Of a stretch of DNA of 64,000 nt, positions 40,521 to 56,350 are shown one piece after another (the stretch's first letter is position 1; each line of letters starts with the position of its first letter). Position numbers and translations under genes: made by a program. This stretch comes from Eledone cirrhosa (Eukaryota), in the NCBI GenBank assembly GCA_964016885.1, contig OZ024740.1:29264001-29328000 (forward strand). Reading direction: 5' to 3'. A model generated the notes under the pieces. That model was not told the DNA's origin. It saw only the letters and a list, made by a program, of their open reading frames with translations, and did not search any database.

Positions 40521-40687
40521 ATAACGAAGGAAGAGTGGTAAGGAACCAGATGGACCATAACGCACCAGAGTACTCAATACTTAGGGCAGTAGAGTGGGTA
40601 ATAGGAAAATGTTTGACCCCGACGGCTAGTCCAGCAATAGCCGTAGAAACGGCTTGAGCTCTGCCGTCGGGGTCAAACATTTTCCTA
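40521..40687 (-). mobile_element. Family C short fold-back element
   Basis: Tail ATAACGAAGGAAG..GAGTGGGTAA plus palindrome TAGGAAAATGTTTGACCCCGACGGC..GCCGTCGGGGTCAAACATTTTCCTA, inside (TA)n; six copies in the window. Confidence 0.75.
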
Positions 40688-40706
40688 TATATATATATAT
40701 ATATAT

Positions 40707-42643
40707 GTAAAAGGTAAACAGAAATAACAACACAATCGGTACAGTATATGGAAGGGATATATTAGGTTAACGCTTGATATAGCAGGAGGAGGGTCTTAAC
40801 GTTTCGGACGCTATTCCTTCATCAGAAGAAAGAATGAGAAATAAAGTAGATTGAGGGGACGGGCGGGATGGAATTTGAAAAAATATCTTTAGATAAAAAT
40901 AACAGGTCCATTCACGTTGACATCTCTTGCAAAACTGATGGTGCTGGCGTTTTGTGTATGATTTATCTTTTAGAAAAGTGGCTGATGGAGCGCGTCCACC
41001 TGAAATGGAAAAAAACGCGTTTTGTAAAAAGAGTTATACTTGAGCACGTGCGTAAGCATGAGTTTCTGTGTGTGTGTGTGTGTGTGTGTGTGTGTGTGTG
41101 TGTGTGTGTGTGTGTGTGTGTGTGTGTGTGTGTGTGTGTGTGTGTGTGTGTGTGTGTGTGTGTGTGTGTTATAGGTCCGTACGAAGCTAAGAAGTAATGT
41201 GTGTGTGTGTATATGTGAGTAAAAGAGTGTGTGTGCATGTAAGTACGAAGCTATGAGCAAAAGTATGTTAATATAAGGGTGTGTATCGGCATCTATTAGT
41301 AGTAAGAGAAGCTGCTAATGATCAAGAGAAAGCGATAAAAATCTAGGGCAGTGATAATGGACGGGGTATTAGAGAAATTGGGGAGGTGAGTTGAGCCCAA
41401 GAAGGGAATAGGTTTCAAGACGGTGAATCAGACTTTGTTCAGTCCAGGTGCGCGAGGCCTGTGATCCATGATGTAAAAGGACACCCAGGACTGAAACATG
41501 TAGGGAAGAATGACCAGGAGAACAGAAATGACGGGTGACAGGAGTATCCAAACCGAGTCGTATGTCCCTCAAATGTTCGGCAAAACGGTCCGCCATACGG
41601 CGTCCCCTTTGTCCGATATATAAAGACCCGCAAAGGGAACACCGGAGGGCATAGACAACGTGGGTGGAAGTGCAAGTAAAGGAATGGTGGATACGGAAAG
41701 ACCCGTTATAGCCTGTAAGAGTGTTGAGGGTGGAAATAAAGGGACAAGTGTTGCAGCGGGAACGGGATCAATCATGAGAGCCGGGTGGAGTCGTGGGAGA
41801 GGACGAAAAAGAACTGCGAACCAGGAGGTCGCGGAGGTTGGGGGCGCGCTTAAAAGCAGTAATGGGTGGATTTGGAAAAAAACGAGAAGTGACAGGGTCA
41901 GAAGTGAGGATACGGAAGGAACGGAGGATATGTCGCCGGAGTGGTAAAGTGATGGGGTGGTAGGTAAGATGGAAAGGAACACGGCTGTTGGGAGGGTGGG
42001 GGTGAGGTGAGAGGGCTGTGGTGCGGTCTGTTTCACGGGTGTGGGTGAGAGCAGGTTGGATCAAGGTGGAGGATATCCACGCTGGATGAAGCAGGAAGCC
42101 ATACGAAGGGAATGGGTTTCGAAATCGTTGTCCTGGCTACAGAGTCGACGAATACGGAGGAATTGGGAATAGGCTATGGAGTGTTTGGTGTGGGTATGAT
42201 GGGAGGAGGTGAAGTCGAGATAAGATTGGGAGTCTGTTGGTTTAATGAAGATGGAAGTAGAGAGGTTGTGGTGAGAGTGATTAAATAGATAGAGAGATAT
42301 CTAGAAAAACGACAGAAGAATCGGAGACGGAGGCGATGAAAGTGAGAGCAGGATGGAAAGATTGGACAAAAGAAAGAAAACAGTCGATCTGTTCTCGTGA
42401 TAGAGAGGTGGCGCCGATACAGTCGTCGATATAACGACCGTATAGCTCAGGAGTCAGTCCAGCGTACTGGGAGTAGATCTGGGCTTCGACGTAGCCAACA
42501 AACAAGTTGGCATAGTTTGGACCCATTCTGGTTCCCATCGCTACCCCAGAGACCTGCTGGTAAAATTCACCCCAAAAAGAAAATCCATTAAGGGTGAGAG
42601 CAGATGGAGAATCGTGGTAGTAGTGGGGTAAGGGGTAGGGCGT
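40707..42643 (-). mobile_element. Penelope-like element, 5'-truncated and decayed (RT plus C-terminal GIY-YIG)
   Basis: LTLNGFSF..YQQVSGVAMGTRMGPNYANLFVG..RYIDDCIG; AFKRAPNLRDLLVRS; YIG..RFAEHLRDI..PVTRHF..EQSLIHRL; hammerhead near the 3' end. Confidence 0.88.
40794..40829 (-). ncRNA. Minimal type I hammerhead ribozyme
   Basis: Minus strand TCTT-CTGATGA-A-GGA-ATAGCG-TCC-GAAAC-GTT-AAGA; stem III reduced to the palindrome ACGT. Confidence 0.75.
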
Positions 42644-42733
42644 AATATATATATATATATATATATATATATATATATATATATATATATATATATATAT
42701 ATATATATATATATATATACATACATATATATA

Positions 42734-42929
42734 TAGGAAAATGTTAGACATCTGACGGCAGAGCTCAAGCCGTTTCGACATCTATTTCTGGACTCCAGAA
42801 ATAGCCGTCGAAACGGCTTGAGCTCTACCGTCGGAGTCTAACATTTTCCTATTACCCACTCTACTATCCTAAGTATTGAGTACTCTGGTGCGTTATGGTC
42901 AATCTGGTTCTTTACCACACCTCCTTCGT
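42734..42929 (+). mobile_element. Family C short fold-back element
   Basis: Same palindrome and tail; abuts the left TIR of the DD37D transposon. Confidence 0.75.
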
Positions 42930-55600: not shown

Positions 55601-56074
55601 TTTTTGTTTTTTTGTGAACGTGTCTGTTGATTTTTGCCATATAGTTGATTAGTTTAAGAGAAGTTCGAAGATAATTGTAAGATATGCACTCAGTATTTTG
55701 AATCTGTCTACAGAATTCTCTAGACCTTTGTCACTTGGTAGAACCTTAATGATTTTAGCTTTTAAAGAATCTCCCTTTTCTTTAATTCTATCGACCATGA
55801 CTGACCCCCCACTGATTTTATAGACATCTGTTAGCTTAAGAGAAACTTAATGACAAGGAATGGTATGCCATCCGGAACCTGTTTATAGAATTCTGTCTGC
55901 CCTTGTTACTCTAAAAACATAAATAAATATAAATAAAAATAAACTATAGCTTTGTAGAATTAGCTTTTAATGAATTCCCTTTTCTATCAACCAATGACCT
56001 ACACCCATCCCACTCCCCACCCTCTCCTACCACTTGTAGAGACCTATAAATACCATTTTTATTTTTTGATACCC

Positions 56075-56125
56075 AGATTCCTGATGATTTCTAATGAATG
56101 AAACAGTTCTAGTCCTGTAGAATCT
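56075..56125 (+). ncRNA. Type I hammerhead ribozyme with all three helices formed
   Basis: AGATTC-CTGATGA-T-TTC-TAAT-GAA-T-GAA-ACAG-TTCTAGTC-CTGT-A-GAATCT; 6-bp stem I, GUA site. Confidence 0.8.
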
Positions 56126-56156
56126 CATCTATATTAAAACTATATATATATATATA

Positions 56157-56350
56157 TAGGAACCAGTAAGACCCCGACAGCTGAGCTCAAGCCGTTTCGA
56201 CGGCTAATTCTGGACAGAATTAGCTGTCGAAACGGCTTGAGCTCAGCTGTCGGGGTCTTACTGGTTCCTATTACCCACTCTACTACCTCAAGTATTGAGT
56301 CCTTTGGTGCGTTATGGTCCACCTGGTTCCTTACCACATTTCCTTCGTTA
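56157..56350 (+). mobile_element. Family C short fold-back element (longest palindrome)
   Basis: Centre GACGGCTAATTCTG-GA-CAGAATTAGCTGTC, plus tail. Confidence 0.78.

Follow-up and report, generated by a model that had tools for sequence, protein, structure and literature searches.

Between positions 40,521 and 56,350 of a 64,000-nucleotide (nt) stretch of the Eledone cirrhosa genome (assembly GCA_964016885.1, contig OZ024740.1, positions 29,264,001 to 29,328,000 of the forward strand; hereafter the window) lie six fold-back repeats, here called family C. These are short 5'-truncated, head-to-head insertions of a Penelope-like retrotransposon, and the positions at which their arms end argue that they are probably built from two target-primed complementary DNAs (cDNAs), begun 79 nt apart, which run off the 5' end of the RNA and are then joined end to end. 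An earlier note on the window had taken the repeats to derive by retrotransposition from a Penelope-type element with a ribozyme, in spite of their likeness to miniature inverted-repeat transposable elements (MITEs). This part of its reading is supported, and a coding parent with a complete predicted hammerhead fold does exist in the genome.

Six fold-back repeats in the window

All six copies described in the earlier note (beginning at 40521, 42734, 47219, 48199, 50986 and 56157; copies 1 to 6 below) were located, and their positions verified. Each carries a tail of 79 nt on one side together with an inverted arm, forming a palindrome of variable length. The best segment of every copy gave a BLAST E-value between 1e-31 and 1e-100, far beyond chance. 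We number the element from the A of (T/C)AGTCC as +1; in this frame the predicted hammerhead cut falls at +41|+42, the outer end of the tailless arm at +58 and that of the tail arm at +137. Copies of sufficient length share the arm consensus GAAACGGC-TTGAGCTC(A/T)-GC(C/T)GTC-GGGG, which is the 3' half of a hammerhead, and in agreement with the earlier reading a motif scan for CTGANGA...GAAA found it in none of the six. The claim that almost all copies lie within (TA)n holds for both flanks of four; the tail of copy 2 adjoins a Tc1/mariner-like element instead, and the second arm of copy 5 is broken.

The inner ends, at which the two arms meet, vary from copy to copy. In copy 1 the tail arm (40525-40626, minus strand; tail 40525-40603) covers +36 to +137 and the tailless arm (40627-40685, plus strand) runs from -1 to about +58, with the initiator-like A (+1) at 40628 and the predicted cut after 40668. 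Copy 2 joins a tailless arm (42736-42794, minus strand) with its inner end at +1 to +3 to a tail arm (42795-42928, plus strand) with its inner end at +3 to +4, placed here as +4 to +137; the outer end of the latter is the one that lies outside (TA)n. The tail arm of copy 3 (47223-47318, minus strand) stops at +42, the first base after the predicted cut (+41 if one G is shared), and its tailless arm (47319-47338, plus strand) spans about +39 to about +58. In copy 4 the tailless arm (48201-48237, minus strand) reaches +22, the tail arm (48232-48334, plus strand) covers +35 to +137, and both contain the AGCCGT of the stem III strands (48232-48237). Copy 5 consists of a tail arm (50990-51125, minus strand; +2 to +137), an extra base at 51126 and a second arm (51127-51143, plus strand; +5 to +21) that is broken off after 17 nt. 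In copy 6 a tailless arm (56159-56215, minus strand; +58 to +2) and a tail arm (56215-56347, plus strand; +5 to +137; tail 56269-56347) share one C at the join, and the predicted cut lies after 56251. The stem II hairpin GACGGCTA...TAGCCGTC, which had been named as the turn point of copies 2, 5 and 6, is made by the palindrome itself, and the real 5' strand of stem II, GATCGGCTA (-36 to -28), is missing from all three.

A parent of Hydra type by its motifs

An exact pattern for the end of the tail, which required TATA after it, matched the genome 23,987 times, compared with no match for the reversed control. The parent was found by searching with arm plus tail, where two of 30 loci extended upstream (L018 and L024; genomic loci are cited by such numbers throughout). 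Longer loci have arms of 2-3 kb in an unchanged layout, and one of them (L101) is a near-complete unit of 3,557 nt composed of a repeat, the tail, an open reading frame (ORF) for reverse transcriptase (RT) and endonuclease in which one frameshift was seen, a 3' untranslated region of about 1.1 kb and a second repeat. By this layout the tail corresponds to the 79 nt that immediately follow the terminal repeat on its downstream side.

The single ORF, as read from the frames of L091 and L101, both of which are broken in places, carries the RT motifs FDIE, MGAT, YR-DG and VNFLD, followed by a C-terminal GIY-YIG domain (VIY...YIG). Pfam returned no match for six ORF pieces of the parent, and the RT and endonuclease assignment therefore rests on these motifs; a PDB sequence search gave no match either, and a homolog search returned 754 proteins, the best at 55% identity and almost none of them named. 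The protein contains the DKT motif (HSDKTGN), RLRWR (i.e. RWR in place of RWK) and a CxCX5C linker (CNCPDRSIC in L091 and L094, with the last C mutated in L101). CCHH is absent, with a single C between VIY and YIG, and CNLC and CKH surround the E and N. In most loci examined (TA)n adjoins the tail end as well as the tailless end. These features match the definition of the Hydra clade (PMC8557442), and by motif the parent is a Hydra-type Penelope-like element; the Neptune clade, considered first, was set aside once the Hydra motifs matched. Two further assignments were rejected. A MITE, which has fixed terminal inverted repeats at both ends and a uniform length, does not agree with a 79-nt tail at one end, arms of about 17 nt to kilobases and a sequence that is the end of an RT-coding element. 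Retrozymes of the non-LTR (long terminal repeat) kind are defined in the text of bioRxiv 10.64898/2026.07.22.740005 as tandem units with a complete hammerhead in each, whereas the stubs described here stand head-to-head with half a motif.

Two structural peculiarities were noted alongside. In L101, two similar bulged hairpins (+67 to +90 and +145 to +166) each lie 7-8 nt past one outer end; the second is the minimum free energy (MFE) fold, and the first was drawn by eye where the MFE favours another pairing. Locus L010 (G000:C79, near 4300-4670) is a chimera in which a palindrome of family D, a second Penelope-type family, is continued at its tailless end by a family C arm that begins at -4.

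A predicted hammerhead with a U3-A8 core

The upstream part of the parent reads ACCCC-TTGAGAA-GATCGGCTA...TAGC(C/T)GTC-GAAA-CGGC...GCCGTC-GGGGT, and the MFE structure of this motif is a three-helix type I hammerhead fold. Stem II is predicted to pair -36..-28 with +11..+18 and stem III +22..+27 with +35..+40, and a weak hairpin is predicted within loop II (-16..-9 with -4..+5). The core is UUGAGAA, carrying U3-A8, and not CUGANGA. A parent with CTGANGA upstream of GACGGCTA, which the earlier note had anticipated, appeared in none of 30 loci examined among 82 matches: the pattern (CTGANGA up to 4 nt before GACRGCTA) gave 82 matches against 24 for its control, and the 30 were an unrelated RT-coding-looking repeat or chance, none of them family C.

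The core was surveyed in 53 spans, a sample skewed to one subfamily in which some loci are counted twice. Position 7 was G, T, C or A, the 3-8 pair was U-A in 46 spans, U-G in one and C-A in four, and CTGANGA occurred in none of the 53. As criteria for an active type I hammerhead we used U4-G5-A6, A9, G12-A13-A14, U16.1, H17, G10.1-C11.1 and a 3-8 pair, with the numbering compared with that in the text of PMC4209133. Judged from its sequence, the motif has what an active ribozyme of this type would need, with U4-G5-A6 and A9 retained in 51 of the 53 spans. Rfam named no hammerhead among the 150 listed of its 187 matches over the window.

A capped 5' half and the 3' end of the upstream cut product are predicted to co-fold into a hybrid that resembles a hammerhead and is held together in part by the stem III palindrome; the account below places no weight on this prediction. 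A 23-nt deletion between two AGCCGTC repeats (stem II 3' strand; stem III and cut site) recurs in L121, L174 and the tailless arm of L024.

Where the arms end

Inner ends were collected from 90 position-ordered loci (30 being the first tail matches by position and 60 coming from the 70 listed after them, L111-L200), and the end map comprises the 115 arms that reach +24. Eighty-three of them end at -4 to +8, a 12-nt span around the initiator-like A which we refer to as the wall. The remaining arms end at +12 to +24 (n = 14), past -40 (n = 11) or in between (n = 7, of which at least four are over-extensions by the caller). No arm ends on the 5' strand of stem II (-28 to -36) and one ends on the loop II hairpin (-9 to -16). 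The earlier reading is supported in that fold points vary by copy and one class lies at the predicted cut, and not in its expectation that turns would follow the ribozyme helices: the main class lies at the wall, which resembles a transcription start and not a helix. A script paired a tail arm with a tailless arm in 53 of the 90 loci and two tail arms in one, leaving 36 single or uncalled; it is noisy, halting at indels and miscalling about nine loci (such as L148, L152, L187 and L197), and was used for this tally only. In the arm-alignment listing, too, some arms (L160, L170, L171, L174 and L179) are carried too far, into the arm facing them.

Outer ends are fixed, at +58 in arms without the tail and at +137 in those with it. 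Arms of 58 nt and of 137 nt stop at the same place, and the stop is therefore set by position and not by length. Seven of the 90 insertions (L123, L132, L147, L151, L177, L181 and L184) have non-overlapping arms, the tail arm stopping inside the tail; since such arms share nothing, neither can be a copy of the other. In five of these seven the inner end of the tailless arm remains at +1 to +6 and the tail arm is short by 60-110 nt. The tailless arm is the longer one in L116, L127, L144 and L200. Joins through stem III complementarity, as in copy 4 and L191, are rare.

The wall as a putative capped transcription start

Position +1 sits 29 nt after the TATA-like TATTTAAA, in a TTAGTC or TCAGTC context that we take to be initiator-like. 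In 3,734 arms the base at -1 is a purine, against T or C in the template; G accounts for 87 and A for 13 of the first 100 rows (p = 1e-14), compared with 50 C, 35 T and 15 G as untemplated letters in a control one base over. In about 12 of 23 G cases examined in context, neither the other arm nor the target can supply the G, and in L226 (TA)n leads directly into G-AGTCC. Within the first 100 of the 3,734 rows, six pairs carry a G on each inner end, with 0-6 nt between the two. An untemplated 5' G in L1 and SVA insertions has been attributed to copying of the cap (PMC3287187), and by analogy the G before +1 is likely to be the signature of a copied cap. T-runs at the wall may reflect the template or the addition of A to the cDNA (L186, L192 and L205).

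The wall is unchanged in a subfamily with a different loop II sequence (L141, L156, L176 and copy 1), and family D provides an independent control. A long arm of family D stands beside copy 6 (55900-56140, plus strand, start approximate), with CTGATGA at 56081, and long copies of this family have TATAAATA 30 nt before a CA. Among 35 family D arms, five are long, one ends at -1, six end at +1 (30 nt after the TATA) and the rest end downstream, with none between -2 and -130; ends called +22 to +25 are probably subfamily mismatches. A G precedes five of the six arms ending at +1, although two rows may be one locus. Because +1 of family D lies 6 nt upstream of CTGATGA, the wall follows the presumed promoter and not a helix. 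The TATA-like box ends in AAATACCA in both families, though the ribozyme halves sit differently relative to +1. The Penelope transcript of D. virilis, as described in PMC2377424, also starts within the terminal repeat, from a TATA-less promoter.

Scars at the predicted cut site

Arms starting at +42 after two non-template bases number 595, as against 167 at the control position +24, where only 31 of the first 100 rows fall in subfamilies covered by the +42 pattern. Both arms end at +42 in nine of 26 loci examined, several with one A or T in between, which suggests that one RNA molecule served for both arms. Inserts placed exactly at +41|+42 gave 13 matches (12 loci), compared with a single match at +29|+30, which is a duplication. 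The inserts include one duplication and one of only 2 nt; most are A- or T-rich, and the A- or T-rich ones are found mostly in long copies. The whole ribozyme is traversed in nine of the 12 insert loci and in 11 of the 115 background arms (p = 2e-6). Such inserts would fit an RT that reaches the 5' end of a cut RNA and continues on the upstream product at its tailed 3' end; the alternative, which they would also fit, is the copying of an imperfectly ligated circle. In a short palindrome (L239/L240, G000:C7:18516351-18516424) the same 5-nt insert occupies the predicted cut in both arms and was therefore present on the template of both.

A proposed two-cDNA route and its alternatives

We propose that a capped RNA polymerase II transcript starts at +1, within hammerhead loop II, so that the 5' end of the RNA would hold only the 3' half of the ribozyme; the stubs would lack the core because the 5' repeat copy of the transcript holds no more than this half. 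The element protein would cut both strands of (TA)n and prime cDNAs at +58 and +137. For an Anolis element, in vitro work has shown two RT starts that bracket the tail, and cutting and extension of both strands of the target (PMC11167929). Both cDNAs, usually made from one RNA molecule, would run off the 5' end of the RNA, be trimmed and be joined via short microhomology or filler. A ribozyme-cut RNA would have its 5' end at +42, the position at which a minor class of arms ends. Long copies may arise when RT passes from +42 to +41 of the upstream cut product, on a circle or by a template jump, or when it copies read-through RNA.

A broader version of this scheme is more tentative, and we would not yet put it above an even chance. 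It envisages for Penelope-like elements a two-ended, strong-stop-like route in which one ribonucleoprotein primes two cDNAs close to the 5' end of a single RNA, capped RNA yields dead-end hairpins by the tens of thousands, and only RNA ends cut by the hammerhead (a U3-A8 variant overlapping the promoter) let RT pass from +42 to +41 and give rise to long or more-than-unit copies. If true, the ribozyme would decide whether transposition is abortive or productive, and its cutting and rejoining in vivo would be recorded in the genome. A mismatch shared among the 30 best hits had suggested a separate RNA as the source of each arm, an idea that was dropped as a query artefact.

Several points weigh against the two-cDNA route and the role given to the ribozyme. 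The start site, the cap, the cleavage and the circle are all read from DNA, and symmetric joins taken alone fit two cDNAs or one cDNA turning at its tip. T or C stands at -1 in 14,987 arms against a purine in 3,734, so that the G marks only about 17% of the arms reaching +1, and the wall is spread over -4 to +8; this needs several starts, untemplated A additions that read as T, and trimming of ends. The ends at +42 could reflect stalling of RT at the base of stem III, an explanation that is harder to extend to the inserts at +41|+42; in about six of 30 rows at +42 the other arm could share the Gs, and the controls are one position each. In stability the fold does not exceed shuffled sequences (z = -1.0 and -0.6), and two of the four cores (out of 53) with a C3-A8 mismatch still have cut-site inserts. 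The part of the account that concerns the cut site is the less certain one because, in the text of PMC11167929, cleavage by the ribozyme of the Anolis element is dispensable in vitro and no RNA reads ending at the cut are reported.

The mechanism favoured in the earlier note, in which a single cDNA folds at the hammerhead helices and primes its own second strand, has a precedent in the self-priming proposed for Penelope palindromes (PMC3846280). It would account for private variants, which are often common to both arms of a copy (L016, L114, L121, L146 and L176), for the joining of copy 4 and L191 through the two stem III strands, and for the position of the wall on the 3' strand of the weak loop II hairpin (-16 to +5). 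A helix that served as a turn should nevertheless persist with its 5' strand, and on the two 5' strands concerned the map of 115 ends holds none for stem II and one for loop II. Nor can this mechanism readily produce the seven insertions without arm overlap or the four loci with a longer tailless arm; the wall stays in place despite a different loop II, in family D it precedes the CTGATGA core, and the mechanism leaves both the cap-like G at -1 and the constant outer end at +58 without an explanation. Snap-back at the helices is thus largely refuted by the end map, and we consider it very unlikely.

A hybrid of the two, in which a single cDNA runs off the 5' end of the RNA, turns at its tip via a self-complementary patch and is copied to +58, with asymmetry produced by later deletion, appears unlikely to us as well. 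It needs a separate reason for the stop at +58, where in vitro work on another element maps an RT start (PMC11167929). A central deletion should erode both arms, yet the tailless arm keeps +1 to +6 in five of the seven non-overlapping copies, and 0-6 filler bases separate the paired G-ended arms. In its favour, the hybrid covers the wall, the cap G and the variants shared between arms, and many joins fall on tiny palindromes (AATT in L189, TCGA in L137 and TA in L114). Long palindromes are unstable, and one might suppose that a few palindromic non-autonomous masters, similar to MITEs or short interspersed elements, were amplified and that their centres were later rearranged through this instability. 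One arm-to-arm mismatch does recur in the 30 best hits to copy 6, but it is a CpG change selected by the query and is mostly missing from the position-ordered sample. Descent from masters is the explanation that we find hardest to credit: joins differ in almost every copy, at least four subfamilies each show the same wall, arm length ranges from about 17 nt to more than 2 kb, and single-armed copies (L113, L192 and L226) start at the same wall. The formation of the repeats from two target-primed cDNAs is the reading that we retain.

Other features of the window

The element next to the tail of copy 2 is Tc1/mariner-like, occupies 42929-44222 on the minus strand and has the terminal repeat GTGGGGCATAA; its ORF pieces (43051-43593 and 43617-44195) look transposase-like by eye. 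Another Penelope-like fragment at 40760-42650 (minus strand) includes RT pieces, a two-cysteine GIY-YIG-like domain and CTGATGA...GAAA at 40825. The 3' end of a third Penelope-like element (45300-46420) has a CxxxxCxxC linker and a two-cysteine VYS...YIG domain followed by (TA)n, with a canonical hammerhead core at 46222. Further near-perfect palindromes in (TA)n, with arms of 190-220 nt and a full CTGA(A/T)GA...GAAA motif in each, are located at 50062-50453, 50578-50964, 51361-51795 and about 61800-62000. Finally, a divergent (CAC)n/(GTG)n microsatellite palindrome at 48780-49490 attracts spurious microRNA matches.

Comparison with known systems

Published work already covers the element type, the inverted layout with a tail, the pair of RT starts and the core of U3-A8 type. 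The value of the present family therefore lies in the test that it affords and not in a new class. Penelope-like elements are relatives of telomerase, and family C gives thousands of natural footprints. Judging from the texts of PMC3846280, PMC11167929, PMC4209133 and PMC8557442, the literature leaves open the origin of inverted and tandem Penelope ends, the RNA strand that is copied and the role of the hammerhead. The present reading makes predictions at the level of single bases: transcripts should be capped and begin at +1, the ribozyme should cut at +41|+42, and RT should start at +58 and at +137. Annotators should note that a palindrome in (TA)n with the look of a MITE can be a retro-product, and that searches for CUGANGA miss this U3-A8 ribozyme. 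Neither an origin of palindromes by run-off at a capped start nor scars left in the genome at the cut site turned up in a search of open-licence PubMed Central and bioRxiv main texts, and an octopus repeat annotation (PMC13282606) names Penelope families and, in the sections available, no palindromes.

Like the parent described here, the Hydra clade (PMC8557442) has DKT, CxCX5C, no CCHH, CxxC and CxH near the late E and N as well as a GIY-YIG-like domain at the C-terminus, along with a hammerhead in the terminal repeat, which in the parent is a predicted one, and (TA)n targets. The two differ, as far as they can be compared by motifs with the published description, in RWK versus RWR, a length of generally less than 3 kb versus a 3.56 kb unit, a canonical core versus U3-A8 and a tail of 30-40 nt versus 79 nt. 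Endonuclease-bearing Penelope-like elements are reported with the same head-to-head arms, tail at one end and palindromic junction (PMC3846280, PMC8557442). PMC3846280 reads such palindromes as the result of self-priming, probably on an antisense template, whereas the ends mapped here point to capped sense RNA and two cDNAs.

An experimental counterpart is Poseidon of Anolis carolinensis (PMC11167929), for which the same AT-rich target, the cutting and extension of both strands and a tail extending from one RT start to another, both just downstream of the terminal repeat, are described. The account of Poseidon consulted gives no map of the inner (5') ends of its insertions. Ribozyme cleavage is dispensable in vitro and unseen in the RNA reads reported for Poseidon, whereas family C bears genomic scars at the predicted cut. 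In L1 and SVA, by the account in PMC3287187, the untemplated G marks full-length copies, while here it occurs on stubs of 58 and 137 nt, since copying likely starts near the 5' end of the RNA. Cercyon of Schistosoma mansoni (PMC4209133) has the same U3-A8 in place of C3-G8, a type I motif in the terminal repeat and a palindromic loop III; by comparison, stem III of family C is a full 6 bp and its long loop II would contain the promoter start. For Cercyon, ligation of the cut ends into a circular template has been proposed, in a text that offers no in vivo evidence for it, and the inserts at +41|+42 may be taken as indirect evidence for a join at the cut, as in that circle model.

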